Below, piece after piece: positions 133 to 61,700 of a DNA stretch of 64,000 nucleotides (positions within the stretch are counted from its first letter, which is position 1; every line of letters starts with the position of its first letter). The stretch comes from Antedon mediterranea (Eukaryota; Animalia; Echinodermata): the NCBI RefSeq assembly GCF_964355755.1, contig NC_092672.1, positions 32,680,437 through 32,744,436 of the forward strand. The letters run 5' to 3'. Below the pieces are notes generated by a model, which was not told the DNA's origin, did no database searches, and worked only from the letters and a program-made list of their open reading frames with translations. The translations under genes were made by a program, and so were the position numbers.

Positions 133-1731
133 TTACAGCAAAATACATGGGCATGTGGTGGAACGGTGTTGAGATTCTGTTCTTTGACTTCTTTGTGATT
201 CTGCTCTTTGGTGACTTCGATCTTCTTGACTCTGATCTGAATCTGAATCTAGATAACATGTCACATAATGGTTAGGTAATTGTCTTTGCTCTTGCAGTTG
301 TTGTATTTGAGCTTGCAGTTGTTGTTGGCTTTGAGCTTGCAGTTGTTGTTGTCTTTGCGCTTGCAGTTGTTGTTGTCTTTGCGCTTGCAGTTGTTGTTGT
401 CTTTGTTTTTGCAGTTGTTGTTGTCTTTGAGCTTGCATTTGTTGTTGTCTTTGAGCTTGCAGCTGTTGTTGTCTTTGAGCTTGCAATTGTTGTTGTCTTT
501 GAGCTTGCAGTTGTTGTTGTCTTTGAGCTTGCAATTGTTGTTGTCTTTGAGCTTGCAGTTGTTGTTGTCTTTGAGCTTGTAGTTTTTGTTGTCTTTGCGA
601 TTGCAGTTTTTCTCTCTGTGCTTGTAACTGTTGTTGTCTTTGCGCTTTCAATCTGGTTTCTCTTTGCGCTTCATAGTTTGTTGAAGCAATCGGTACACTA
701 TCATAGAATCGACCACTGTTTTCTGTTATTGTAACAACATGATGGTCAGATGTTTGCCTTCTAGATTTTGATATCGATGACTCATGTCCATGTCCTGTAT
801 AGTTTAAATTTCTCGCATCACTGCGTGATGAATAGTTTGCAGTAGGCATCTGTCCAATCTTTCGCCATAACATACATTTTATTCGTAGATTACGCTGTGA
901 ACTGAAGTCAAACAATTGGGACAACTCTTTTATCTGCCAAGATTGTTCTGCCATGGGCAGCTGATACGGATTATCCTCACCTCGATCAATAGTAGCAACC
1001 TCAACAAAGTTTGCCTGCCTAGCAACAGAACTAAAAAACTCTGTATTACCACCTTTTGAATTTTCCAAATAGAATAAGTAGGCACCTGATTTAGCATGGC
1101 TTAGTAAATCTTTAAGTGTATGTCGTGCATTTCGTAGTACTCGTATAGCTGATATAAACTTGCTACATGTGATCAGATCTGCTTTGGCTATGGCTTTAAG
1201 ATGTTCAGATGCAACACGTCTACTAATGGCTTCAAAATGAAGATAATCAGCTGATAACTGTGGTTGCTGATCTAGGCTTGCTAGTAAGCATTCAAAAGCA
1301 ACATCCCAGCTGGAATGTCTATCAAGAACAGTCGCAGTAATCCGAATATCTTCATAACCTCTACTGTTGAGAAACATCCTGACACCAAACAAGTCTGTAC
1401 CGGGTCCTCCGCCCAAAGCGCAGATATTAAGACAGCCGCGGATTGAAACTCTTTCTAATAGCATGTTTAAATGCATGTCAACGTAGAATTGCTGTAGACT
1501 GTCGAAGATACCATAGCATAAGGCGGGAAAATAGAGAAACACATAACAGGCTTGGTACGCAGGATCGTCAAAATCTACATCTCCGTCACCTTGATAAAGC
1601 GATGAGGGTTTATAACAGTCGACAAGTTCCTGCATGCATTCGGTCAGTTCGTCATGCCTGTCGGTGTACAGTAATATTCTATGGACCCCTTGCTTCATGA
1701 GAAGCAGAACAGGTTGTCCAAATCTTTCCAT
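133..1731 (-). CDS. Single-exon class I SAM-dependent methyltransferase-like protein (paralogue 1), Gln-rich repeat linker, C-terminal CaaX (CPCILL)
   Basis: 532-aa ORF; glycine-rich motif I LNICALGGGPGTDL, acidic residue in TVLDR, ADLITCSKFISA strand; strong similarity to ORFs 12884-14845 and 17728-18942; ends TCPCILL*. Confidence 0.85.
   Translation of the reverse strand: MERFGQPVLLLMKQGVHRILLYTDRHDELTECMQELVDCYKPSSLYQGDGDVDFDDPAYQACYVFLYFPALCYGIFDSLQQFYVDMHLNMLLERVSIRGCLNICALGGGPGTDLFGVRMFLNSRGYEDIRITATVLDRHSSWDVAFECLLASLDQQPQLSADYLHFEAISRRVASEHLKAIAKADLITCSKFISAIRVLRNARHTLKDLLSHAKSGAYLFYLENSKGGNTEFFSSVARQANFVEVATIDRGEDNPYQLPMAEQSWQIKELSQLFDFSSQRNLRIKCMLWRKIGQMPTANYSSRSDARNLNYTGHGHESSISKSRRQTSDHHVVTITENSGRFYDSVPIASTNYEAQRETRLKAQRQQQLQAQREKLQSQRQQKLQAQRQQQLQAQRQQQLQAQRQQQLQAQRQQQLQAQRQQQLQAQRQQQMQAQRQQQLQKQRQQQLQAQRQQQLQAQRQQQLQAQSQQQLQAQIQQLQEQRQLPNHYVTCYLDSDSDQSQEDRSHQRAESQRSQRTESQHRSTTCPCILL
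285..650 (-). repeat. Coding 24-bp tandem repeat (QAQRQQQL)n, about 14-15 units
   Basis: Repeated ttgagcttgcagttgttgttgtct on the + strand, inside the 133-1731 ORF. Confidence 0.95.
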
Positions 1732-6615: not shown

Positions 6616-8951
6616 ATATAATATATAATAATTTATTTTCCAAAAAACGAATATTGTAGCCCTAATAAATGCAACAACTGTATAGTGGCAAATCATTGAA
6701 GGTCAGCGTTACATTTTAACATCATAACATTTTAACCGTCATAATATTAATAATATTAATAATTTTATTATTTATTTTACAGTATTATATGAATACATTT
6801 AAAATATTGCGCACTAGAAAAAATATAAAAATACCATAACTTTTGACCTTTGACCTATGTCAACTTGTGTAATGATAAATGTGCTCTTTTGATTGTGTAT
6901 GAATGATAGATGTCTTAACAGAATGATAAAACATAACATTTTGTCTTAAATGTTAGTTTTTATTTGGGTTTATATGCAAATTGTGTGATTGGTCAATATT
7001 GACATTTGACCTTTAATTGAAAAGTATTTGTTTTATAAGGCGACTGAATAGATACCTATAACCATACAAATGCATTAAAAGACCAAATTGAACTTCAATA
7101 AATTGGTTATAATACATATGTATATAATACATTGTTATAATTGGTCAATTTTTAACTTTGACCCTTATCTCTTCCTATTCGCTTCCTATCCTGATCAAAG
7201 TCTGATTCGATTAAATATTATAATTATATTAATCAAAATTATAATGAAATAACATAACTTTACTAATCAAATAATTTTATTACTTGTAAAACCATCAATA
7301 TCATAGTTTGGACAACTTTGCATTTATTTGTTAACTAATACGTGTATTAAAATGTTGACCTTTGACCTTATGTCCACTGATGAAATTGACCTTATGTCAA
7401 CTGATGAAATGATGTATTCGCTCTTTTACATTGCGTATGATTGATTAACAGGATGAGAAAACATCCAATTTTTATTAAATATAAGTTTTTATTTGGTTTT
7501 ATAGGTACGTTCTATGATTGGTCAATATTGACATTTGACCCTTAATTACAAAGGATTTTTGTTTTCATAAGGTGATTGAATAGACACTTATAATCATAAA
7601 AATGTAATAAAAGACCAAATTGTGCTTCAATAAATTTGTTATAATACATATAGCCTACATAATACATTGTTGTAATTGGTCATTTTTGAACTTTGACCCC
7701 TTATATCTCGAAAACGCTTCCTATCCTGATCGATTACCTTCCATATTCGTAATCTACGGAAAATTCTGGTCTAGAAAAGTTGGATGGCAATTTGTCCCCT
7801 TTCGGGTGGTGATTCCCCCCTCCTGCCACCGGACTACTATGACCTAAATAGAATACAGAGAGGAACCTGTTGTTAATGTCATGTAGCAGAATGGTAAGTT
7901 GTTTTAAAATTGTGGTTTCATCATTTTTTGTATTTTTGCTCCAATACCTGACCTAGTGTAGTGGACTTGAGGAACTTGTTGGTGATGGCAGTACCTTTGC
8001 TATTAGACGACCTGATGATGCTTTGTTTTGTTTTGCTTTGCTTAGTCGTTTTAGTATTTCTGGTCTTTGTGCACATGGCGTATGTCGAATACTTTAAAGA
8101 TGTCGCATACATTGAGTGATGCTACTCAAGTACTCTGTTCGACGTTGTTACTGGATGGAAAGTTGTGTAGTAACTTTTTTTTTTGTCTTATGTAGGATCG
8201 ACCCACTTTTATTTCTTCATCAATAAAATGTTCGTTTACAATGAGTACATTGAGCACATGAGTAATGTAATGATACAATTAGACTAGGCTATGAATGAGG
8301 TAGGTGCCACCCGGAGAGGTAGAAATTCTCATATGACTTTTCTAGACCAGTTTTTTCTGGGGAATCCAAATATATTGGGTAAACGGGCTGTAACCTGAGA
8401 ACTTTCGCGTGAGGGCGCTTTTTTCAAAATGGCTGCCAGTTACCGTAGACTATGATATCTTGGCAACCACTGGTCATAGAGAGTTGATTTTGGTGTCAAA
8501 TTGTTCGGAATGTACATGTTCCTATTTGATGTAATAGAACATTTTGTCAGAAAATGGCCGGAAATACCTCTATTGACCTTTGACCCAATATCTAACAGAT
8601 ATCATATCTTCATAACTACTCGACACAGAAAGTTGTAATTGGTGTCAAACTCTCCAGAATATAGATGTTTATATTCAAACTAATAGAACATTATCTGTAA
8701 AAATGACCGGAAATAACGTTACTGACCTTTGACCCAAAATGCAAGACATTTCTCCCATCTGATCTCGTTAATCTTGTCAATTAATTCATTTTGTGCCAAT
8801 TGGAGGTTGACATTCTCATATTATTTTCTGGACCAGTTTTTCATGTGCAATCCGAATATATGAGATAAATAAGCCATAACAAGGCCAAGAATTTAATTCT
8901 CTTTTACTACATACATGCTTCCCTTTAGTGTTTCAGACTGTATGTCGTGTA

Positions 8952-10430
8952 TTAATCTTCAAGATCGCTCACATCACTGCAATCTGAAAAGTCTTCATAT
9001 TCATTATGTGTAAACAGTTCCTGGACATCAGTGGGCATCACTGTCTCAATCCATTTAGGCTCCATTTGTTCGTTCCATCCATTGTGTGTACTGTTGTTGA
9101 CAAAATCATTGACGTCTGCTGATTGCCATTCTTTAGTAATGAAGTTTGCTCTAAGTATATGAAACTCAAGGGTCTGCTGACATAGTGGCAGTAATGATAT
9201 ATCTGTAATCTTGTTGTGTCACGTCTGGAAAACTTTCTGTTGAAGGTATCATATCTTGCTTGATTTACACTTTCCCCCTTCACTCCATACAATAGTGAAA
9301 CATACTCTTCAAGTTCCTCATACAACTCTTTTGATGGAACATCTGACACTCCAAGGTTGCAGAATGCGTCAACAAATTTTGCTTTTGATTCCAGAAGCTT
9401 CCAGCAGGTACGTTTTCCTTTCCGAAAGAAAGCGGAGTTATAATCGTTACCTGTGAAAGCATGGAATCCAATAAGGGATGATTTCTGCGCTTTTGTTAAA
9501 TCAATGTCACTCAATTTCAGTACCTTTCGGTATTTCCCAGTGTTTGTATCAATAATTACCCTCTGCCCATCATCTATGAAATGAGATAGTGCAATGACTG
9601 GAATATCAATGTCTCCAGAATGGGAACGAATTATTGCTACGCCTTGATTGTTATTTGTTAAAGCATGCTTTGCATGCAGGATGACTTTCGTGTAGGCTTC
9701 TTCTTCCGGCTACTATTAAGCTCCGGAACCAATACAACATCTCAGTTAGTAACGTAGATGCATTCTTTGTACGATGAAAAGTAGGTAACATCAATCCTCA
9801 TATCTGTTGGAATGCTTTCTTTCTTTGATACTAGTACACAGCGAATAAGCTCAATCAATCTGGTCTTGTTCTCGCCGTTGGCAAGGAAATTGTTGAAATC
9901 ACGGCCAACTTTAATATTGTTGAGCTTACAATTACTTTTGGTGCAATACCGCGTATGTTTCTCTCAACAGACTTAATGCTTTTTGGCAGGTATGCATCGG
10001 TAACAATATCAACACGCTTGTATCCTTTAGGGATGCTGTTGAAAACCTTTGCTACAAGATCCTCGTACGTATCAGGGTAAGATGTAAATGTTCTGATTAG
10101 TGCCATCAAGTCAACAACATAGGCAATGACAGTAGCCTTTGCTGGCAGTGCCCGACCAGGATCTATAACATCTGTTGAACTTTCGATGAGAATTTCCATT
10201 AGGACACTTTTCTGAGTTGTTCGTCTTGTCCCATCTGCATTAGCAAGGCTTAGCGGGACAGGGGTAAGTGGATACTCAAAGGCTTTCTTAAAGTCAATTA
10301 TTCTACCATGCTTTGTTGAGGTGGCAAGAAGCTTTCCTAAAACATCCCGATTAGCTTATATTACTTTTACTTTCCCATTTGCCTGGATTTCTAGTTTCTT
10401 CCCACTATTCGAAAATAAAGTGAGATGATG
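8952..10430 (-). pseudogene. Frameshifted 3' part of a transposon-encoded protein with FEN1/XPG-like nuclease motifs
   Basis: ORF pieces 9855-10199 (YVVDLMALIR...RVDIVTDAY) and 9038-9514 (GFHAFTGNDYNSAFFRKGK); broken by indels. Confidence 0.7.
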
Positions 10431-10454
10431 TTATGGATCCTGGTCGAGCACTGC

Positions 10455-11463
10455 GAGAAACAGACGCGGTATTGCACCAAAAGTAATTGTAAGCTCAAAA
10501 ATATCAAAGTTGCCCCGTGATTTCAACAATTTCCTTGCCAACGGCGAGAACAAGACCAGATTGATTGAGCTTATTCGCTGTGTACTAGTGTCAAAGAAAG
10601 AAAGCATTCTAACAGATATGAGGAGTGATGTTATTTACTTTTCATCGTACAAAGAATGCATCTACGTAATACTAAACTGAGATGTTGTATTGGTTCCGGA
10701 GCTTAATAGTAGCCAAGAAGAAGCCGACACGAAAGTCATCCTGCATGCAAAGCATGCTTTAACAAATAACAATCAAGGCGTAGCAATAATTCGTTCCCAT
10801 TCTGGAGACATTGACATTCCAGTCATTTCACTATCTCATTTCATAGATGATGGGCAGAGGGTAATTATTGATACAAACACTGGGAAATACCGAAATGTAC
10901 TGAAATTGAGTGACATTGATTTAAAAAAAGCGCAGAAATCATCCCTTATTGGATTCCATGCTTTCACAGGTAACGAGTATAACTCCGCTTTCGTTCGGAA
11001 AGGAAAACGTACCTGCTGGAAGCTTCTGGAATCAAAAGCAACATTTGTTGACACATTCTGCAACCTTGGAGTGTCAGATGTTCCATCAAAAGAGTTGTAT
11101 GAGGAACTTGAAGAGTATGTTTCACCATTGTATGGAGTGAAGGGGAAAAGTGTAAATCAAGCAAGATATGATATCTTCAACAGAAAGTTTTCCAGACACA
11201 ACAAGATTACAGATATATCATTACTGCCACTATGTCAGCAGACCTTTGAGTTTCATATACTTAGAGCAAACTTCATTACTAAAGAATGGCAATCAGCAGA
11301 CGTCAATGATTTTGTCAACAACAGTACACACAATGGATGGAACGAACAAATGGAGCCTAAATGGATTGAGACAGTGATTCTCACTGATGTCCAGGAACTG
11401 TTTACACATAATGAATATGAAGACTTTTCAGATTGCAGTGATGTGAGCGATCTTGAAGATTAA
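10455..11463 (+). pseudogene. Second, inverted copy of the same 5'-truncated transposon gene
   Basis: 257-aa ORF with QEEADTKVILHAKHA...HSGDIDI...FHAFTGNEY motifs; upstream part is frameshifted and has no authentic start. Confidence 0.7.
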
Positions 11464-12341
11464 TACACGACATACAGACTGAAACACTAAAGGGAAGCAT
11501 GTATGTAGTAAAAGAATTAAATTCTTGGCCTTGTTATGGCTTATTTATCTCATATATTCGGATTGCACATGAAAAACTGGTCCAGAAAATAATATGAGAA
11601 TGTCAACCTCTAATTGGCACAAAATGAATTAATTGACAGGATTAACGTGATCAGATAGGAGAAATGTCTTGCATTTTGGGTCAAAGGTCAGTAACGTTAT
11701 TTCCGGTCATTTTTACAGATAATGTTCTATTAGTTTGAATATAAACATCTATATTTTGGAGAGTTTGACACCAATTACAACTTTCTGTGTCGAGTAGTTA
11801 CGGAGATATGATATCTGTTAGATATTGGGTCAAAGGTCAATAGAGGTATTTCCGGCCATTTTCTGACAAAATGTTCTATTACATCAAATAGGAACATGTA
11901 CATTCCAAACAATTTGACACCAAAATCAACTCTCTATGACCAGTGGTTGCCAAGATATCATAGTCTACTGTAACTGGCAGCCATTTTGAAAAAAGCGCCC
12001 TCACGCAAAAGTTCTCAGGTTACAGCCCGTTTACCCAATATATTTGGATTCCCCAGAAAAAAACTGGTCTAGAAAAGTTATATGAGAATTTCTACCTCTC
12101 CGGGTGGCACCTACCTCATTCATAGCCTAGTCTAAATACAATATAATTGACATTAACTAACTTTCAGTACAACTGATATCTCACTCCTACCATTGCATTT
12201 TATATATAATAGTATAAGGAAAGAAAAAAAAATTCCTCTATGTTATACACTCTTTACACGTTTTTCAATCCTTAACAATGTACGTATAATTTACCACAGA
12301 ATTCTTAATTTTATAACTCTTTTTATCTCTTTCAGGCAATG

Positions 12342-12377
<36 letters not shown>

Positions 12378-12883
12378 ATATTTTACTTTACCTAAATATC
12401 AATTTTATAAACGTTAATTTTATACCTTGCTAAATTGTTACGGTCCATATCTGACCACATTTTTTTTTGCCTTTTCTTTATTTATTAAAAACTCACAATT
12501 GATTATATCTTCTAACTCCGCAGTGAACATTAACCATGGACATTTTTTAACAAGTCCTAGTCCTGTGTTTGACTTTATTTTTATAAACACAGAAAGTTAA
12601 AATGGAAAATATTTCATTAATTTTGATATCATATTTTCCAAGTAAAATTTTCTCCCATGTAACTTCCTGAGTAAATGCAAAACATGTTTTCAACATAGCG
12701 CAACATTTTACCCAGCAATGCTTTGCTTAGTCGTTTTAGTATTTCTGGTCTTTGTGCACATGGCGTATGTCGAATACTTTGATGATGTCGCATACATTGA
12801 GTGATGCTACTCAAGTACTCTGTTCGACGTGGTTACTGGATGGAAAGTTGTGTAGTAACTTTATACAAATGATAACATATTGG

Positions 12884-14845
12884 TTAATCATTTAGTTTAA
12901 TTTTAGGTTGCTTCTGAGCGCGAACAATATAACATTTTGTATCAATATTTTTCATATCTTGAATAGCCTTCGATGCAGCGTCATGGTTTTCAAAGCTTAC
13001 AAAACCGAAGCCTCTGCTTTTTGAATTTTCATCACGCATCACTTTCGCACTGACGATTTTTCCATATTTACTAAACTTTTCAACCAGTTGATCATCTGTA
13101 ATATCAAGGTTCAAGTTCTTGACATAAACGTTTATGTAACTCTTCATTTTATCAACCTTCTCGGCAGCTCTGGCTTTACGACGAATCATATGACTTAGAT
13201 ATACTTGTTTTCCATTGTGCAACATGCCGTTGACTTTACTTATAGCCTTTGAGGCAGCATCTTCACTCTTAAATTGGATAAACCCATAGCCTTTAGACTC
13301 ATTGTTTTCATCACATAGAATCTTACAAGACAAAATTTTACCAAACACTGAAAATGCGTCATACAGAGCTTTGTTATCAATTGCCTTGTCCAGATTTGCA
13401 ATAAAGACGTCTCTCATCATGCCAGGTAAACTTGAATTACGTTTGGACCCCATGATATCTTTGCTATTACCAGTTGACGTGGTTACATGATGCGTTGTTT
13501 TGCGAGGAATCCAACCGAGATATACTTCTTTTCCATTGTGCAACATGCCATTGACTTTACGTATAGCCTTTGAGGCAGCCTCTTCTTTCTCAAATTGGAT
13601 AAACCCATAGCTATTAGACTCATTGTTTTCATCACACTGAATCTTACAAGATAACATGTTACCAAACTCTGAAAATATATCATTCAGAGCTTTGTTATCA
13701 ATTGCCTTGTCTAAGTTGTCAAAGTAGATATATCCTGTGTGGATAGAATTTCTCCAATCTCTAGGAGGATGTGATAGTGTAGGTGATGTGACCACATTTG
13801 TCTTCTGAGGAATGTTCTGGGTTTGGTTAGGTGGTATTATTTGTTTTGCACCCAGCAAATTGCGTGAATAATATAAAGCAGGATATATCGGACTTGTATA
13901 GCTGAAATGTCTCCCTTCACTGGATGGTGAAACAGCAGGTATTTGACCAGTCTTTCGCCATAACATACATTTTACTCGTAGATTACGCTGTGATCGAAAG
14001 TTAAAATGTTGGGACATGTCATTTATATACCAGGATTTTTCTGTTTTGGGTAACCGGTATGAATGTTCTTCATCTCGATCAATGCTGTAAACCTCAATAA
14101 ATTGTGCCTGTCGAGCAACAGAACTAAAAAAATCCGTATTACCTCCTTTTGAATTTTCCAAATACAAAATAAAGGCACCTGGTTTAGCTTGGTTTAGAAG
14201 TCTTCGTAGTGTCTGTTGTGAATTCGGTAGTGCCTTTATAGCCGATATAAACTTACTACATGTAATCAGATCTGCACTAGCTATGGCTTTTACATGATCA
14301 TGTGAAATATATCCTCTAATACCGACTTCAAAATGAAGATAGTCAACTGATACGCTTGATTTTCCACTTAGACTTGATAATAAACAATTAAATGCAATTT
14401 TCCAATTGAGATGTCGATCCAAAACCGTCGCACGAATCATTACTTCTGTATAACCGTTACTGTTGAGAAACATCTTAACACCAAACAAGTCCGTTCCCGG
14501 GCCTCCACCCAAAGCGCAGACATTTAGACAGCCACGACGTGAAATAATGTCCAATAGAGTGTTTAAATGACCGTGATCAAAACATTGTTGTAGACTGTCG
14601 GAAATACCATAACATAATACGGGAAAATATAGAAACACATAACAGGCTTGGTACGCAGGATCGTCAAAATCTACATCTCCGCCACCATCTTTCAGCGATG
14701 AGCCTTTATAAGCGTTACACAGTTGTTCAATGCAATTAGCCAGTTTATCACGACCTTTGTTGGAATACTTTAAAATTTCATGTACTCCATACTTTATAAG
14801 AATCAGAACAGGTTTGCCTAGAGGCCAAGTCTGGTAATTATCCAT
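12884..14845 (-). CDS. Single-exon methyltransferase-like protein (paralogue 2) fused to three PABP-like RRM domains
   Basis: 653-aa ORF; N-terminal LNVCALGGGPGTDL domain; two copies of NLDKAIDNKAL...FG.ILSCKI.CDENNES.GYGFIQF (PABPC RRM2-like), then NVYVKNL...SRGFGFVSFENHDAA (RRM3-like); no CaaX. Confidence 0.9.
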   Translation of the reverse strand: MDNYQTWPLGKPVLILIKYGVHEILKYSNKGRDKLANCIEQLCNAYKGSSLKDGGGDVDFDDPAYQACYVFLYFPVLCYGISDSLQQCFDHGHLNTLLDIISRRGCLNVCALGGGPGTDLFGVKMFLNSNGYTEVMIRATVLDRHLNWKIAFNCLLSSLSGKSSVSVDYLHFEVGIRGYISHDHVKAIASADLITCSKFISAIKALPNSQQTLRRLLNQAKPGAFILYLENSKGGNTDFFSSVARQAQFIEVYSIDRDEEHSYRLPKTEKSWYINDMSQHFNFRSQRNLRVKCMLWRKTGQIPAVSPSSEGRHFSYTSPIYPALYYSRNLLGAKQIIPPNQTQNIPQKTNVVTSPTLSHPPRDWRNSIHTGYIYFDNLDKAIDNKALNDIFSEFGNMLSCKIQCDENNESNSYGFIQFEKEEAASKAIRKVNGMLHNGKEVYLGWIPRKTTHHVTTSTGNSKDIMGSKRNSSLPGMMRDVFIANLDKAIDNKALYDAFSVFGKILSCKILCDENNESKGYGFIQFKSEDAASKAISKVNGMLHNGKQVYLSHMIRRKARAAEKVDKMKSYINVYVKNLNLDITDDQLVEKFSKYGKIVSAKVMRDENSKSRGFGFVSFENHDAASKAIQDMKNIDTKCYIVRAQKQPKIKLND

Positions 14846-15470
14846 TTTTCAGTGCTAGGCCTATGGGTTGCGTATGCAGTAGTAGTATAAGATGTATAAT
14901 ATGATGATAACTAAAATGTTTAGAAATTTCCAAACTTTAGTCATTACTATTTTTAGAAGTCATGACAAGTTAGCCATGCATGCGATCATAACAATGTTCA
15001 ATTCATTACAATATACCTACTTATATAACGCGATCGATACCGACAGAAAAATCGGCAGTAAACATTCAGAATTTAAGCTTAATCATTATAACAAGTTAAA
15101 AAGAATTGTAATTGACAATATGTGTTAGTTCTTAGAATATATTGGTCATGTGACTGTCCTTTTCAAAATGTAGGTACAGTATGTATTTAATCATGGATTC
15201 TTTAATCCATGATTTAATAAAGTGATTATGATTGGTTGATCTCTATTATAAGGAAAACAATACACACACAGTGTATGATAGCTACAGACTACCTGGGCCA
15301 TGGAAGGCTATCAAATAGCCTTGCCTGGACCAGTGTGAAATGTGTAATTTAACTCTTCCCTGCTTGACCATAGAAATCAAAACTGTGTAGAGGTGGGGGA
15401 GCGAGGAATACATGACGTAGTATGGACTGGCTAGACAAGATATTGATTTGAATTCAAATAGGACTACTTA

Positions 15471-17727: not shown

Positions 17728-18942
17728 TTACAGCAAAATACATGGGCATGTTGTTGCGGAACGCGACTGTTGAACTTCTGTTCTTCGCCGCTGTCGTGAT
17801 TCTGCTTCTTGGCGACCTCGCTCTTCTGGACGTTGGTTTCTTTGAGTTTCTGGATAACCTGTAATATACTCGTTAGATAATTGTCTATGTGCTTGCAGTT
17901 GTTGTTGTCTTAACGCTTCTAATCTGGCTTTTCTTTGAGCTTGATAGTTTGCTGAAGGAATTGTAATGGCATGATGGTCAGATGTTTGCCTTGCTGAATC
18001 ATGTCCAAATCTTGTATAGCTTCTCCCATCACTGCATGGTGAAACAGCGGGTATCTGACCAGTCTTTCGCCATAACATACATTTTACTCGTAGGTTACGC
18101 TGTGAACTGAAATTAAACAATTGGGACAACTCTTTTATCTGCCAAGATTGTTCTGCCCTGGGCAGCTGATACGGATTCTCCTCACCTCGATCAATGGTAG
18201 CAACCTCAACAAAGTTTGCCTGCCTAGCAACAGAACTAAAAAACTCTGTGTTTCCACCTTTTGAATTTTCCAAATAGAATATGTAGGCACCTGGTTTAGC
18301 ATGGCTTAGTAATTCTTTGAGTGCATGTCGTGAATTTGGTAGTGCCTTTATAGCAGATATAAACTTACTACATGTGATCAGATCTGCCTTAGCTATGGCT
18401 TTAAGATTTTCAGATGCAACATGTCTACTACTGGCTTCAAAATGAAGATAACCAGCTGATAATTGTGGTTGCTGATCTAGGCTTGCTAATAAGCATTCAA
18501 AAGCAACATCCCAGCTGGAATGTCTATCAAGAACAGTCGCAGTAATTTGAATATCTTTACAACCTCTACTGTTGAGAAACATCCTGACACCAAACAAGTC
18601 TGTTCCGGGTCCTCCACCCAAAGCGCAGACATTAAGACAGCGACGAAGGGAAACTCTTTCTAATAGCATGTTTAAATGCATGTCAAAGTAGAATTGTTGT
18701 AGACTGTCGAAGATACCATAGCATAAGGCGGGAAAATAGAGAAACACATAACAGGCTTGGTACGCAGGATCGTCAAAATCTACATCTCCGTCACCTTGAT
18801 AAAGCGATGAGGGTTTATAACAGTTGACAAGTTCCTGCATGCATTCGGCCATGGCCAGTTCGTCATGCCTGTCGGTGTACAGAAATATTCTATGGACCCC
18901 TTGCTTCATGAGAAGCAGAACAGGTTGTCCAAATCCTTCCAT
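17728..18942 (-). CDS. Single-exon methyltransferase-like protein (paralogue 3), C-terminal CaaX (CPCILL)
   Basis: 404-aa ORF closely similar to 133-1731 but without the Gln-repeat expansion; flanks are also homologous. Confidence 0.85.
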   Translation of the reverse strand: MEGFGQPVLLLMKQGVHRIFLYTDRHDELAMAECMQELVNCYKPSSLYQGDGDVDFDDPAYQACYVFLYFPALCYGIFDSLQQFYFDMHLNMLLERVSLRRCLNVCALGGGPGTDLFGVRMFLNSRGCKDIQITATVLDRHSSWDVAFECLLASLDQQPQLSAGYLHFEASSRHVASENLKAIAKADLITCSKFISAIKALPNSRHALKELLSHAKPGAYIFYLENSKGGNTEFFSSVARQANFVEVATIDRGEENPYQLPRAEQSWQIKELSQLFNFSSQRNLRVKCMLWRKTGQIPAVSPCSDGRSYTRFGHDSARQTSDHHAITIPSANYQAQRKARLEALRQQQLQAHRQLSNEYITGYPETQRNQRPEERGRQEAESRQRRRTEVQQSRSATTCPCILL

Positions 18943-33005: not shown

Positions 33006-35370
33006 ATGGCTGCATCAGGTACGATAGTTCTCCAATTTAAGATCTCAAATTTCACAAATCCTGAATTTCAGCATACATCCATTCAAAGAAATAACATATT
33101 AGTGAACTTATTAAAATATTTCAACAAATATTTATTTTGCCATTGTAAAATGTTCTTTTCTATTTAGTACTTCTATTTTAAAATTATTTATAAAAATATA
33201 TTATTTGTCTTAATTATATCAAACCGTTTATAACATTTAATCTGTTTTCGCTATATAGAAAGACTTGACTCATCTTTTAAACAAGGTTTAATAACTTTTT
33301 CAACTTGGTATGACGAACGTTCGTACATAACAAAACTAAAAGTGTTGTACCAAGGTAAAATTGCAGAAACGGATTTATACAATGCCTCAACGACGATGGA
33401 CTTGCTGAATCATTTATCTGATTCTGGGGATCACAGTTCAACAGATTACACTATTCTTTGTGATACAATAAAGGCCACTAAACAGTTTGGTATTATTGAA
33501 GAACTTCGAGTTCACATTCCATCTTTCCCGAATGTAAGAGAAGAAATCATTATTTCCAAGTTCAGTCATCATCAACAAAACATTATGAATTTAGGAAATG
33601 AACTAATACAGGAAGAAGTGAAAAAAATTGACATTATGTTCAATAAACCTCCAAAGAATCATAAAGATGGATGGAATCTCCTTTTGGATTTACAGCACAA
33701 ACAAATTATTTGTGAAGAAGAGAAAAAAATGGATACATTTATTAAGACCTTAGATAATCTTGGATTACCTCGCGCTGTAGCAACTCTTACTCAAGGTACA
33801 ATGTGATGAGTTTATTGGAACATGCTTACATTAAGCTCTGTCTACACTATCAAACTTATATCAAAAAAATGTGATGTGCCCATACAGTATAAATATGATG
33901 ATGTCATATCACTACCATATTTAAGCATATCACTACCATATTTTGGCATATCACTACCATATTTTGGCATATCACTACCATATTTAGGCATATCACTACC
34001 ATATTTAGGCATATCACTACCATATTTAGGCATATCACTACCATATTTAGGCATATCACTGCCATATTTAGGCATATCACTACCATATTTTGGCATATCA
34101 CTACCATATTTAGGCATATCACTACCATATTTAGGCATATCACTACCATATTTAGGCATATCACTACCATATTTAGGCATATCACTACCATATTTAGGCA
34201 TATCACTACCATATTTAGGCATATCACTACCATATTTAGGCATATCACTACCATATTTAGGCATATCACTACCATATTTAGGCATATCACTACCATATTT
34301 AGGCATATCACTACCATAGTTAAGCATATCCCTACCATATTTAGGCATATCACTACCATATTTAGGCATATCACTACCATATTTAGGCATATCACTACCA
34401 TATTTAGGCGTATCACACTTTTTTTGTCAAACTAGTTTGATAGTGTAAACAGAGCTTAAGAGAAAGTTATTTGAAAGCAATTTTTTTGCTTTCTACATAG
34501 TTTTAAAAATATTACTTAAATAATTTAAAACTTTCTATATATAATTTCAAACAATTGTAAATCATGTATGAAATTGGTTCTTATTAATCAGAAATCATCA
34601 AAATATTTTAAATATCATTACAGATGTTCCAATATCCGTTACTATGAAACGTAAGTCTGACCATGAAGACAATCAAGCTCTAAAGAGAACCTGTCTTCCC
34701 GCTGTATCTACACAAAGAAATCTTAATGGAAAACTAGAATGTTTTCAAAGCATTATTGATGAAATTCTGCGATCTTTACATACTCTATCTAAAATTAGGC
34801 CATCATCACTAAAAGATATTGATGACAATCTACATCTTTACCACCTAATCTTTCTGATAATACACCATCTGTACTCGCAACTATCCTTCAAAATCTGAAG
34901 TCTTTACAAAAAAACTATTAATGATAATCTACAAACATTACAATGTACTCTTAATATTGAAAATAGGCCTGTGGAAAGACGTATTTATAAAAAACTGCAA
35001 TCATTAAAAACCTTTCTTAAAAAAAGGAAACAATGTTTGTCAAATTTCACACCAACATTTTGTAAATACATAGGGGAACTAAACACTATGACACAAGATG
35101 ATGAGCAGAGATTATTTAGGACAGTACAACTCCTGATTTCTTTCTGCCAAAGATATGGATGTGAATTAAGCAAGCTGGAACGCAAATGTATAGTTTTTAC
35201 TTTTTCTGTACTGGACCCCATTGCTCTGGCTAATCTGTGGAATATGTGTCAAACGGGAGAGCTTCTTATAAAAGTGTCAAAGGAGCATCAGAAGACATTT
35301 CAAGTGGAATGGACAACAGAAATTGACAAAAACAAATATAAGGAAGCACTTTGTATGCTTGAACGAGAAG
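33006..35370 (+). pseudogene. 5' exons of the DED/TRADD-N-like gene (copy 1): 33006-33018, 33259-33795 (intact), 34624-~35370 (frameshifted, donor lost)
   Basis: Homologous to 58705-60458; -1 and +1 indels at ~34834 and ~34910 with a stop at 34898; donor G/GTGAG changed to G/GAAGA. Confidence 0.75.
33834..34456. mobile_element. MITE of the same family with an internally expanded 21-bp minisatellite (~24 units)
   Basis: TIRs agctctgtctacactatcaaact / agtttgatagtgtaaacagagct; unit catatcactaccatatttagg; empty site at ~59531. Confidence 0.9.
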
Positions 35371-46693: not shown

Positions 46694-49455
46694 ATGGCTG
46701 CATCAGGTACGATAGTTCTCCAATTTAAGATCTCAAATTTCACAAATCCTGAATTTCAGCATACATCCATTCAAAGAAATAACATATTAGTGAACTTATT
46801 AAAATATTTAAACAAATATTTATTTTGCCATTGTAAAATGTTCTTTTCTATTTAGTACTTCTATTTTAAAATTATTTATAAAAATATATTATTTGTCTTA
46901 ATTATATCAAACCGTTTATAACATTTAATCTGTTTTCGCTATATAGAAAGACTTGACTCATCTTTTAAACAAGGTTTAATAACTTTTTCAACTTGGTATG
47001 ACGAACGTTCGTACATAACAAAACTAAAAGTGTTGTACCAAGGTAAAATTGCAGAAACGGATTTATACAATGCCTCAACGACGATGGACTTGCTGAATCA
47101 TTTATCTGATTCTGGGGATCACAGTTCAACAGATTACACTATTCTTTGTGATACAATAAAGGCCACTAAACAGTTTGGTATTATTGAAGAACTTCGAGTT
47201 CACATTCCATCTTTCCCGAATGTAAGAGAAGAAATCATTATTTCCAAGTTCAGTCATTATCAACAAAACATTATGAATTTAGGAAATGAACTAATACAGG
47301 AAGAAGTGAAAAAAATTGACATTATGTTCAATAAACCTCCAAAGAATCATAAAGATGGATGGAATCTCCTTTTGGATTTACAGCACAAACAAATTATTTG
47401 TGAAGAAGAGAAAAAAATGGATACATTTATTAAGACCTTAGATAATCTTGGATTATCTCGCGCTGTAGCAGCTCTTACTCAAGGTACAATGTGATGAGTT
47501 TATTGGAACATGCTTACATTAAGCTCTGTCTACACTATCAAACTTATATCAAAAAATGTGATGTGCCCATACAGTATAAATATGATGACGTCATATCACT
47601 ACCATATTTAAGCATATCACTACCATATTTTGGCATATCACTACCATATTTTGGCATATCACTACCATATTTTGGCATATCACTACCATATTTTGGCATA
47701 TCACTACCATATTTTGGCATATCACTACCAAAATTTGGCATATCACTACCATATTTTGGCATATCACTACCATATTTTGGCATATCACTACCATATTTTG
47801 GCATATCACTACCATATTTAGGCATATCACTACCATATTTAGGCATATCACTACCATATTTTGGCATATCACTACCATATTTAGGCATATCACTACCATA
47901 TTTTGGCATATCACTACCATATTTTGGCATATCACTACCATATTTTGGCATATCACTACCATATTTAGGCATATCACTACCATATTTAGGCATATAACTA
48001 CCATATTTTGGCATATCACTACCATATTTAGGCATATCACTACCATATTTAGGCATATTACTACCATATTTAGGCATATCACTACCATATTTAGGCATAT
48101 CACTACCATATTTAGGCATATCACTGCCATATTTAGGCATATCACTACCATATTTTGGCATATCACTACCATATTTAGGCATATCACTACCATATTTAGG
48201 CATATCACTACCATATTTAGGCATATCACTACCATATTTAGGCATATCACTACCATATTTAGGCATATCACTACCATATTTAGGCATATCACTACCATAT
48301 TTAGGCATATCACTACCATATTTAGGCATATCACTACCATATTTAGGCATATCACTACCATATTTAGGCATATCACTACCATATTTAGGCATATCACTAC
48401 CATAGTTAAGCATATCCCTACCATATTTAGGCATATCACTACCATATTTAGGCATATCACTACCATATTTAGGCATATCACTACCATATTTAGGCATATC
48501 ACACTTTTTTTGTCAAACTAGTTTGATAGTGTAAACAGAGCTTAAGAGAAAGTTATTTGAAAGCAATTTTTTTGCTTTCTACATAGTTTTAAAAATATTA
48601 CTTAAATAATTTAAAACTTTCTATATATAATCAAACAATTGTAAATCATGTATGAAATTGGTTCTTATTAATCAGAAATCATCAAAATATTTTAAATATC
48701 ATTACAGATGTTCCAATATCCGTTACTATGAAACGTAAGTCTGACCATGAAGACAATCAAGCTCTAAAGAGAACCTGTCTTCCCGCTGTATCTACACAAA
48801 GAAATCTTAATGGAAAACTAGAATGTTTTCAAAGCATTATTGATGAAATTCTGCGATCTTTACATACTCTATCTAAAATTAGGCCATCATCACTAAAAGA
48901 TATTGATGACAATCTACAATCTTTACCACCTAATCTTTCTGATAATACACCATCTGTACTCGCAACTATCCTTCAAAATCTGAAGTCTTTACAAAAAAAC
49001 TATTAATGATAATCTACAAACATTACAATGTACTCTTAATATTGAAAATAGGCCTGTGGAAAGACGTATTTATAAAAAACTGCAATCATTAAAAACCTTT
49101 CTTAAAAAAAGGAAACAATGTTTGTCAAATTTCACACCAACATTTTGTAAATACATAGGGGAACTAAACACTATGACACAAGATGATGAGCAGAGATTAT
49201 TTAGGACAGTACAACTCCTGATTTCTTTCTGCCAAAGATATGGATGTGAATTAAGCAAGCTGGAACGCAAATGTATAGTTTTTACTTTTTCTGTACTGGA
49301 CCCCATTGCTCTGGTTAATCTGTGGAATATGTGTCAAACGGGAGAGCTTCTTATAAAAGTGTCAAAGGAGCATCAGAAGACATTTCAAGTGGAATGGACA
49401 ACAGAAATTGACAAAAACAAATATAAGGAAGCACTTTGTATGCTTGAACGAGAAG
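46694..49455 (+). pseudogene. 5' exons of the DED/TRADD-N-like gene (copy 2): 46694-46706, 46947-47483, 48708-~49455 (frameshifted, donor lost)
   Basis: Near-identical to 33006-35370; +1 in the A7 run at ~48993 gives a stop at 49006. Confidence 0.75.
47522..48542. mobile_element. MITE with 21-bp minisatellite expanded to ~43 units
   Basis: Same TIRs and insertion site as 33834-34456. Confidence 0.9.
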
Positions 49456-58704: not shown

Positions 58705-61700
58705 ATGGCTGCATCAGGTACGATAGTTCTCCAATTTAAGATCTCAAATTTCACAAATCTTGAATTTCAGCATACATCCATTCAAAGAAATAACATATTA
58801 GTGAACTTATTAAAATATTTAAACAAATATTTATTTTGCCATTGTAAAATGTTCTTTTCTATTTAGTACTTCTATTTTAAAATCATTTATAAAAATATAT
58901 TATTTGTCTTAATTATCAAACCGTTTATAACATTTAATCTGTTTTCGCTATATAGAAGGACTTAACCCATCTTTTAAACGAGTTTTAATAACCTTTTCAA
59001 CTTGGTATGACGAACGTTCGCTTATAACGAAACTAAAAGTATTGTATCAAGGTAAAATTGCAGAAACGGACTTACACAATGCCTCAACGACGATGGACTT
59101 GCTGAATCAGTTAACTGATTCTGGAGATCTCAGTTCAACAGATTACACTATTCTTTGTGACACAATAAAGGCCACTAAACAGTTTGGTATTATTCAAAAA
59201 CTTCGAGTTCACATTCCATCTTTTCCTAATGTAAGAGAAGAAATCATTATTTCCAAGTTCAGTCATCATCAACAAAACATTATGAATTTAGGAAATGAAC
59301 TAATACAGGAAGAAGTGACAAAAATTGACAATATGTTCAATAATCCTCCAAAGAATCACCAAGATGGATGGAATCTCCTTTTGGATTTACAGCATAAACA
59401 AATTATTTGTGAAGAAGAAGAGGAAAAAATGGATGGATTTATTAAGACCTTAGGTGATCTTGGATTATCTCGCGCTGTAGCAGCTCTTACTAAAGGTACA
59501 ATGTGATGAATTTATTGGAACATGCTTACATTATAGACAGTTATTTGAATGCAATATTTTTGCTGTTTACATAGTTTTTAAAATATTACTTAAATAATTT
59601 AAAACCGTCTATATATAATTTCAAACAATTGTAAATCATGTATGAAAATGGTTCTTATTAATCATCAAAATATTTTAAATATCATTACAGGTGTTCAAAT
59701 ATCCGTTACTATGAAACGTAAGTCTGACCATGAAGATCATCAAGCTCCAAAAAGAACCCGTGTTCCCGCTGTATCTACACAAAGAAATCTTAATGGAAAA
59801 CTGGAATGTTTTCAAAGCATTATTGATGAAATTCTGCGATCTTTACAATATACTCTATCTGAAATTAGGCCATCGTTACTAAACGATATTTATGAAAATC
59901 TACAATCCTTACCACCTAGTCTTTCTGATAATACACCATCTGTACTTGGAACTATCGTTCAAAATCTGAAGTCTTTACAAAACACTATTAATGAAAATCT
60001 ACAATCATTACAAAGGACTCCTAATATTGAAAACAGGCCCGTGGAAAGACGTATTTATAAAAAACTGCAATCATTACGAAATTTTCTTAAAAAAAGGAAA
60101 CAATGTTTGTCAAATTTCACACCAACATTTTGTAAATACATAGGGGAACTAAACACTATGACTCAAGATGATGAACAGATATTATTTAGGATAGTTCAAC
60201 TCCTGATTTCTTTCTGCCAAGGATATGGATGTGAATTAAGCAAGCTGGAACGCAAATGTATAGTTTTTACTTTTTCTGTACTGGACCCCATTGCTCTGGC
60301 TAATCTATGGAATATGTATCAAACGGGAGAGCTTCTTACAAAGCTATCAGAGATACTTATAGCGTCAAAGGAGCATCAGGAGACATTTCAAGTGGAATGG
60401 ACAACAGAAATTGACAAAAACAAATACAAACAAGCACTTTGTATGCTTGAAGAAGAAGGTGAGACAAATTTGCAATGCTTCAATCGAATGAACAAATATA
60501 TTTTACAGGCATGTTATAATAAAGAATTTTACGAGTTATTTTTCAACACATGTGTAGGCTATAAAGGTTCAGTCGAATATCGCATTAGCCTAACAGCAAT
60601 AACATTTACAAATAGTATAGATTCCAAATATATTAGAAAATCATCTTGATGTTGCGTTGTGCACATATTCAACCTCTTGTCATAAGTTGTTTACCACAAA
60701 TTTATGATACACATCAACGCATGTAGACAAAATAATATACATACAAAACAACCTATAGTAACGCATGTGTTTGTCTACTTGGCATGTGCTGGTAATGCTA
60801 TTTTGTTTGAAACCAAGTAAGATAAAACATTAGAAATTGATAAATTACAATACAGTCTGAGTTTTAGTATTTTATAACAATGGTATTTTATATTTTCTTT
60901 GTTTCTACAGTCCAAGATATGCCTTATTCACTAATGACTGCAGCTAAACCATCAACACAATATGCTGCAAGTAGTCGGATACAACGGAAATCATACCAAG
61001 TTCAACCACTACCTAGTACCAAAGAAGAAAGGATTACACAACCTGCACCATACCAGAAACAAGAGAATGTCCAATATATACTAATGAAGTCTTCAGTAAT
61101 GACTGCAGCTAAACAATCAACACGATATGGTGCAAGTAATCGGACACAACGATACATCTCCCTCGACGAGGGGGGTGAATTCCCCGACGAGGTGGAAGTC
61201 ATCCCCTTCGACGAGGGGGGTGAATTCCCCGACGAGGAGAAGATTGAAGAAATAGATTCAAAGGAAGTTCAGTCACAACCTAGTAACGAAAAAGAACAAC
61301 CTGGGTAAAAAACTAATTGTCTTAATTATTTTTTTATATTGTATTCATAATAATTAACGTGTGTAGATCATACGCAGTTATTATTTATAACAACCCACCC
61401 ATGACGGGTACCTTAACTCAAAGCACTCTAGTAGTTTAAAACCTTCCCAGTACAAATTGTGGTTATGTTATCCAATATTCTCAACCCATAACCATCCGTA
61501 TGGATGCGTGCAATAACAATGAATTTACTTCAACCTGTCGCTCAGTATTTTACTCTTGCCATGGAAGCTCATATCAGGGAGAAGCGTGTAATTTTACTCT
61601 TTCCTGCTGTTACCTTACAGTGTTATGTTATATACTTTATAGGTTACACACTTATACTCTCCCAAGGACTTGGGATACAACCATCAAAACAACGAAAACA

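Follow-up and report, generated by a model that had tools for sequence, protein, structure and literature searches.

The chimeric gene and its neighbourhood

The window, by which is meant the whole 64,000-nucleotide stretch of Antedon mediterranea DNA analysed here, contains three methyltransferase paralogues on the minus strand, the middle one of which is a chimeric methyltransferase-RRM open reading frame (ORF) of 653 amino acids (12884..14845) that runs uninterrupted in a single frame and whose junction is bridged by contigs. Its N-terminal part (aa 1-300, 13946..14845) is a predicted class I SAM methyltransferase domain, Methyltransf_34/Rsm22-like, in which the GGGPG motif, D143, W148 and S201 are intact. 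A low-complexity linker (aa 301-370, 13736..13945), whose likeness to the window paralogues stops near 13893, lies between this domain and RRM2a (aa 371-449, 13499..13735), which is the more degraded of two copies of the RRM2 of PABPC, the poly(A)-binding protein of the cytoplasm. The two copies are separated by a non-PABP spacer of 14 residues (aa 450-463, 13457..13498), and there follow, on the same minus strand, a decayed PABPC RRM1 last strand with the RRM1-RRM2 linker (aa 464-478, 13412..13456; 9 of 15 residues changed), RRM2b with the RRM2-RRM3 linker (aa 479-570, 13136..13411), and RRM3 (aa 571-646, 12908..13135), which has intact RNP1 and RNP2 and a 3-aa deletion before its last strand. 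The C-terminal extension that a sequence-only reading of this DNA had described, uninterrupted and with two RRM2-like copies and one shortened RRM3-like domain, is therefore present in one 653-codon ORF with three Pfam RRM_1 matches (E 2e-57). The spacer bears a weak likeness to the 3' flank and to the flank's distal copy (2/300 and 0/300 shuffles reached the score); the idea that it is a relic of a paralogue tail was rejected, as that likeness exists at the protein level only (82/300 and 237/300 DNA-level shuffles reached the score).

The flanking paralogues, also on the minus strand, are a left copy of 532 aa (133..1731) with a Gln-rich repeat tail and a CaaX end, and a right copy of 404 aa (17728..18942) with a CaaX end; all three have in common a 300-aa N-terminal domain at 64-67% identity. 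The Gln-rich tail of the left copy is a 24-nt repeat expansion (280-686) which is only brief in the right copy, a difference which indicates that the tails of this family turn over fast. Both window paralogues and the Anneissia protein P0002 end in a Cys-rich CaaX motif, and no C-terminal CaaX was found in the fused ORF, so that the proposed replacement of the CaaX tail stands. The remark that the fused copy has no introns is accurate in that its ORF is uninterrupted, but it carries little weight alone, because all three paralogues are single ORFs.

Just 3' of the fused stop codon lies one copy (12719..12862) of an unstranded 144-bp direct repeat, the other copy being at 8034-8177 (98%); the repeat is possibly what is left of the native tail. 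Between the two copies is a 4.5-kb insert, whose minus strand ends in AATAAA followed by a run of A. This insert may have arisen by retro-insertion, in which case the target-site duplication would be unusually long and the fused gene's 3' flank would have been split. Positions 8279-12135 are occupied by an element of foldback or TIR type, whose inverted arms of 1.69 kb are 97% identical and enclose decayed coding sequence. Further along, a tandem array (21400-63400) consists of about four PARP12-like units of ~14 kb at 88-98% identity, each with winged helix, CCCH, WWE and PARP regions and a 136-aa ORF of no known kind, the last copy having an acidic repeat tail; Pfam detects PARP and CCCH in the array, with WH_PARP12 and WWE below threshold. 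ZAP and PARP12 descend from a common ancestor (PMC8102003, in part), and the position of the array beside the methyltransferases is no more than suggestive of a functional connection. The window also contains 21-bp tandem repeats that are open in several frames (33900-34416 and 47590-48500), which are likely minisatellites and not genes, and a 335-aa ORF (59642-60649) with no Pfam match.

Reality, origin and evolution of the captured PABP piece

Of eight sequencing runs listed, none of them on record as RNA (to which no weight is given), four were compared with positions 12300-15300 of the window, and uncovered parts in X2, X6 and X8 were not counted as absence. Record 4 of X1 (13307-13973) crosses the junction of methyltransferase, linker and RRM2a with 0 differences, although X1 is perhaps the source sample and hence not independent; record 13 of X2 (13622-13973), which comes from another sample and study, likewise crosses it with 0 differences, and X2 contigs tile 12663-14660 save for a 6-nt gap. 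Contigs from two samples and studies thus bear out that the fusion is real and not an artefact of assembly. In X2, PABPC-like contigs, whose loose ends translate by hand to the crinoid PABPC P0008, have depths of ~580-630 as against 16-40 for the fused gene, while in X1 the same 12980 variant has a depth of ~10, similar to that of the window copy. Because PABPC-like depth is high in X2 and ordinary in X1, X2 behaves like RNA, although its status as RNA is a tool's guess and contigs cannot prove a single transcript; the depths and the bridging contigs make it quite probable that the fused gene is transcribed as one mRNA.

A second copy of the fused gene, ~87-90% alike, which may be a paralogue or a deep allele, occurs in X1 and in organism B (X6, X8). 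It has the linker in common with the window copy, its indels sum to whole codons, it diverges at 13738, exactly where the PABP piece starts, and its RRM2 is joined to the spacer; in organism B, RRM3 is joined to the same 3' flank as in the window copy. These joints suggest that the capture is probably common to two related organisms. The 300-640 nt of the second copy that do not align perhaps hold RRM1.

The PABPC origin of the RRMs, claimed from the sequence at the outset, was confirmed by comparison with PABPC proteins. RRM2a is identical to the RRM2 of P0008 at 59/80 positions, and aa 464-646 align to residues 85-271 of P0008 (130/187 columns), which comprise the last strand of RRM1, RRM2 and RRM3, so that the second PABP block opens with 15 residues from the end of RRM1; homology ends with RRM3, and the fused protein contains no RRM1 core, RRM4 or MLLE. 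The captured RRMs are 70-74% identical to crinoid PABPC versus 52-61% to Xenopus PABPC, and PABPs head the list of PDB matches for the region. Two crinoid PABPCs are identical at 188 of 200 positions across the captured span, and since the Xenopus match reaches only 52-61%, the piece appears to be a host-lineage copy that has since diverged fast. In DNA sequence RRM2a and RRM2b agree at 82% of positions, a figure which rises to 90% over a core of 194 nt, and they have derived changes in common, which implies that their duplication or homogenisation postdates the capture. All three RRMs are modelled as complete folds, most blocks having a pLDDT of ~90 and the end of RRM3, with its short last strand, 67-79.

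No RRM occurs in any of 147 other methyltransferase relatives (among the matches listed), and a Pfam scan of 67 family members, mostly the longer ones, found no domain besides Methyltransf_34; by these sequence comparisons the RRM fusion is lineage-specific and one-off. The captured 561-nt PABP piece is contiguous in the fused gene, and human PABPC1 has introns within the region that matches the captured span. An RNA-mediated capture is a likely route, and retroposition of a PABPC mRNA fragment into the methyltransferase gene a plausible form of it. The ends of the insert show a short A-rich stretch after RRM3, with no clear target-site duplication or poly(A) tail for the PABP piece; a long A run at ~12341-12375 was rejected as a retrocopy tail, as it lies on the strand opposite the fused gene. 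A single Anneissia contig encodes at least three PABPC-like proteins (P0009, P0011, P0013), some of them degenerate, a cluster which indicates that PABPC readily duplicates in crinoids.

If the fusion is real and expressed, the RRMs could nevertheless be a tolerated passenger, with selection acting on the methyltransferase, the PABP piece drifting and only the loss of the anchor mattering. The figures that bear on this are approximate, because P0008 is a stand-in for the true PABPC parent and the RRM2 copies have changes in common. At ~28% amino-acid divergence from PABPC the piece has no stop in ~850 nt, an outcome reached in 1.7% of 2000 neutral simulations (matching divergence, indels ignored), and an early stop would be cheap for a single-exon gene, yet none has been fixed. 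Its indels relative to PABPC are in frame (3/3), and its substitutions are conservative (mean BLOSUM +0.07 versus a neutral -0.38 +/- 0.18). With columns classed by an alignment of 118 PABPs, the captured RRM3 is changed at 0/18 invariant columns versus 22/57 variable ones (p 7e-4), so that its core is untouched. These observations all count against drift. On the other side, RRM2a and RRM2b are changed at 15/49 and 21/63 invariant columns, no fewer than at variable columns, so that change at invariant PABP sites is as frequent as elsewhere, and the test pooled across all three RRMs is not significant (p 0.57); the dN/dS of RRM2a versus RRM2b, 0.57, is not significantly below 1 (p 0.11). Between the window and the second copy, 13 of the 16 listed differences are nonsynonymous, as under neutrality (p 0.66; a partial list, hand-classified, one PABPC-belonging site left out), and at 10 of these 13 sites the PABPC residue survives, by hand comparison, in the second copy but not in that of the window. 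In addition, CaaX is absent in many family members anyway, being present in 12 of 62 long members (among the matches listed). The methyltransferase domain is under purifying selection (p 5e-5), its dN/dS versus the right paralogue being 0.53. For the captured part, the signs of selection in these comparisons are mixed, an open frame and constraint on RRM3 standing against RRM2 changes at PABP-invariant sites. Recruitment of the RRMs for use is favoured by RRM3 (p 7e-4) and the open frame but not by the RRM2 copies, which show no PABP-like constraint, and we regard the passenger explanation as unlikely but the most serious of the alternatives.

The methyltransferase family and its AlkB partner

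A HMMER search of 1.84 billion proteins found 336 relatives of the methyltransferase domain, the counts given here drawing on the 150 listed, where word-based homologue searches found only P0002, P0003 and P0004. The named relatives (20 looked up) belong to crinoids, the nearest ones, which points to a feather star as host, and to starfish, spiders, a scorpion, a horseshoe crab and a centipede, and the others are bacterial-type proteins of 280 aa. C-terminal CaaX motifs occur in 12/149 relatives (among the matches listed), all of them within the 62 long members. G113-G117, D119 and D143 are conserved across the family alignment, and the fused copy keeps the near-invariant Y46, Y69, GGGPG, D143, W148 and S201, with a conservative Glu for Asp230; the crinoid clade has Leu at position 77, where 73% of the family has His, and Gln at a position where 77% has Arg (among the relatives listed). 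In the tree the fused domain and its window paralogues form a group (support 0.99) from which Anneissia P0002 and P0003 are separate, and the crinoid, echinoderm and arthropod proteins form one clade (support 0.82), most of whose rows are unnamed. This animal clade adjoins AlkB-linked cyanobacterial proteins, and because the support is weak (0.66) and the tree midpoint-rooted, no bacterial donor is claimed.

The predicted model of the domain (pLDDT 95.8) has the Rossmann core, Gly-rich motif I and acidic residue after strand 2 of class I SAM-dependent methyltransferases, and its fold matches agree with that assignment. VIA-align places chains of mitoribosome small-subunit assembly, which we take to be METTL17/Rsm22, at the top (Z 19.4, 19.0 and 15.1; the first with rmsd 3.4 over 245 aligned residues at ~10% identity), with general methyltransferases at or below 14.4. 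In Foldseek, small-molecule enzymes come out on top by E-value, but the highest TM-scores (0.57-0.59) belong to the mitoribosome assembly chains; in the Atlas, the top clusters carry Methyltransf_34 (PF11312) and also Rsm22 (PF09243) matches; and the best PDB sequence match of the family profile is the m3C enzyme METTL6 (E 8e-4). In Pfam scans the fused domain has no PF11312 match and the right paralogue scores 19.8 bits against a cut-off of 26, while many other family members pass that cut-off, from which the fused domain appears to be a distant relative of Methyltransf_34 and not a member. The likeness to Rsm22 is structural only, as no PF09243 match was found in Pfam scans of the window proteins and relatives, and NCBIfam and PADLOC scans of the animal methyltransferase domains gave no match.

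The most informative property of the family is found in bacteria, where an AlkB-family gene is directly adjacent to the methyltransferase in 31 of 33 bacterial and viral-contig loci (L001-L019, L021 and L023-L035; for example L009:5001-6469). These loci comprise 19 from a pattern scan, 12 more from one phylum, of which 300 sampled genomes were searched with a profile, and 2 from a viral collection, with an adjacent AlkB gene in 18/19, 12/12 and 1/2, respectively; they are not all independent, since there are seven Nostoc-like loci and a single MAG contributes two, and 12 such neighbours served to build the AlkB profile. The AlkB gene may lie downstream, upstream or divergently, and the linkage is spread over the bacterial branches of the tree. 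One neighbour that was searched is of ALKBH3/ALKBH2 type (E 1e-36), and the catalytic HxD/H/R residues are kept in 12/12 neighbours checked. No fusion of AlkB to the methyltransferase occurs in 147 relatives (among the matches listed), and no AlkB-like frame was found within the 64-kb window. AlkB reverses N1-adenine and N3-cytosine methylation, and the ALKBH2/3-type class is known for DNA repair of m1A and m3C (PMC4738411, in part). A methyltransferase that travels with an ALKBH2/3-type eraser most likely makes m3C, m3U or m1A-type base marks, and we therefore consider it highly probable that the family methylates a Watson-Crick-face nitrogen from which AlkB can remove the methyl group. Marks of the m1A, m3C and m3U type block base pairing, and their likely effect would be stalled translation or copying of the bound RNA.

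The sequence-only reading took the fusion to be the strongest internal hint that the family modifies RNA. Modification of nucleic acid is supported, but the fusion is one-off (0/147, among the matches listed), while the AlkB linkage (31/33) and the METTL17/Rsm22 fold are family-wide, so that the fusion is not the strongest hint to the substrate; linkage and fold, moreover, leave DNA possible. That the family consists of toxin-like DNA base methylases whose action an ALKBH2-type partner reverses, the RRM capture being silent on the ancestral substrate, would fit a partner of a class known for DNA repair, ALKBH2/3 also acting on DNA, as well as the patchy occurrence of a gene that often lies near recombinases or transposases. 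The closest folds, however, are the rRNA-bound METTL17/Rsm22 and the closest sequence match is a tRNA enzyme, and CaaX anchors, which direct proteins to cytoplasmic membranes, would put the animal members away from nuclear DNA. On this evidence DNA methylation is an improbable account of the family, and RNA is, with some reservation, the likelier substrate in animals.

The bacterial gene is patchy, with 0/400 sampled genomes of one phylum and 12/300 of another (seed genomes not counted), a spread which fits a conflict system. Mobile DNA seldom carries the methyltransferase-AlkB pair, which was seen on 2 viral-collection contigs and 1 plasmid. PADLOC gave weak generic matches for bacterial members (5/24 and 2/24), and, scanned without a control set, 6/68 locus proteins matched, convincingly in only 3 loci (Olokun, PDC-S31 and DRT2), so that no defence-island context is claimed. 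The bacterial unit is a candidate writer-eraser or toxin-antitoxin pair. A defence role is a guess, prompted by the patchiness and expansion of the family and by the PARP12-like genes next door. Searches of the open-access literature brought up no description of the family's AlkB link or of this methyltransferase-PABP fusion, though an earlier mention elsewhere is possible.

Predicted function and comparison with known systems

All three RRMs retain their RNP aromatics, but both RRM2 copies have changes at N100, K104 and H144 (human numbering), presumably among the polar side chains that contact RNA in the structure of PABP with poly(A). The RRM1 core is absent from the fused protein. RRM1 together with RRM2 is needed for the poly(A) preference (PMC10546976, in part). 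We think it somewhat likely that the captured domains, RRM3 and RRM2b above all, have kept the ability to bind A/U-rich RNA. On the eIF4G face of RRM2, M161 is kept in both copies, and L163, on or near the face, is replaced by His in both; T118 is Ile in RRM2a and Ala in RRM2b, and Y116 is Asn in RRM2a. The protein neuPABP keeps M161 yet fails to bind eIF4G, a defect traced to three substitutions that include Thr>Ile (PMC10546976, in part), and by position mapping the Thr>Ile of RRM2a is the same change. These alterations, with the neuPABP parallel, lead one to expect loose RNA binding without eIF4G; binding of eIF4G by the fused protein is improbable, and recruitment to translation complexes doubtful. 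The retargeting to translation complexes through eIF4G that had been proposed is accordingly weakened by Thr>Ile and Tyr>Asn in RRM2a, Thr>Ala in RRM2b and Leu>His in both.

The same parallel raises the alternative that the fused protein is a neuPABP-like PABP decoy or translation repressor, which binds RNA without recruiting eIF4G and in which the methyltransferase is weak or structural. The absence of RRM4 and MLLE agrees with such a role, as do the replacement of the family His by Leu in crinoids and the fact that METTL17 works largely as an assembly factor; but the near-invariant SAM-site residues are kept save for Asp>Glu at 230, the methyltransferase is under purifying selection, and His>Leu is also found in the non-fused CaaX paralogues, so that we give the decoy little credence. 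An assembly chimera is largely refuted and scarcely credible, for no support for it was found beyond the possibility that X1 is the source sample, while X2 bridges the junction and organism B has related junctions.

The explanation we prefer, and to which as a whole we give even odds, is that this is a real chimeric gene and that its product likely serves to attach a predicted nucleobase methyltransferase to single-stranded RNA and no longer to membranes. A PABPC coding fragment, likely copied from mRNA, would have been inserted in frame after codon 370 of one paralogue and displaced its native CaaX tail, RRM2 being duplicated; the protein would have lost membrane anchoring and gained an RNA tether, which would present single-stranded RNA to the base-N methyltransferase. 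A wider history can be offered only tentatively and seems to us unlikely in its entirety: a bacterial writer-eraser pair, consisting of a damaging base-N methyltransferase and its ALKBH2/3-type antidote, would have given invertebrates membrane-anchored RNA-methylating defence enzymes, and one feather-star copy would have swapped its anchor for PABP RRMs, writing m1A, m3C or m3U lesions on polyadenylated or A/U-rich RNA.

For a methyltransferase family of echinoderms, chelicerates, a centipede and bacteria that had no annotation, the analysis names a class of substrate that can be tested, since from the near-constant presence of an AlkB partner one would predict a base methylation that AlkB can reverse. 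The fusion would be a natural experiment in which an enzyme is retargeted by the swap of its tail from a lipid anchor to RRMs, and, if active on mRNA, an enzyme dedicated to marking polyadenylated RNA on the Watson-Crick face. Should the RRMs be drifting, it is an ordinary lineage-specific chimera, and interest then rests on the family-level finding.

Among known enzymes, yeast Bmt6, which we take to belong to PF11312, resembles the fused enzyme in being a Rossmann-type SAM enzyme, and many members of the present family pass the PF11312 cut-off; the fused domain differs in falling below that cut-off and in belonging to a separate animal and bacterial clade with CaaX tails or AlkB partners, for which no rRNA role has been shown. 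Bmt6 is the cytoplasmic methyltransferase of 25S rRNA that forms m3U2843, at N3 of uridine (PMC3950682, in part). METTL17/Rsm22 is the best structural match, but the fused enzyme has a much shorter domain at ~10% identity, has no evident mitochondrial role and belongs to a set of tandem single-exon paralogues. Relative to PABPC1, the fused protein has RRM2 and RRM3 of PABPC derivation, with RRM2 doubled and joined to an enzyme, and is without the RRM1 core, RRM4 and MLLE; neuPABP (PABPC1L2) likewise derives from PABP by truncation and is altered on its eIF4G face, but is not enzyme-fused. ALKBH8, whose architecture is RRM-AlkB-methyltransferase, is a precedent for the joining of an RRM to an RNA-modifying methyltransferase, although in the fused gene both the methyltransferase class and the RRM differ, and the bacterial partner is of ALKBH2/3 type and separately encoded. 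As in chimeric retrogenes, a coding fragment of a highly expressed gene has been inserted in frame into another gene, although the PABP piece showed neither a poly(A) tail nor a clear target-site duplication. Both chimeric genes and RNA methylases guided by RRMs are already known kinds; for this combination and for the family's AlkB linkage, the searches of the open-access literature brought up no precedent.
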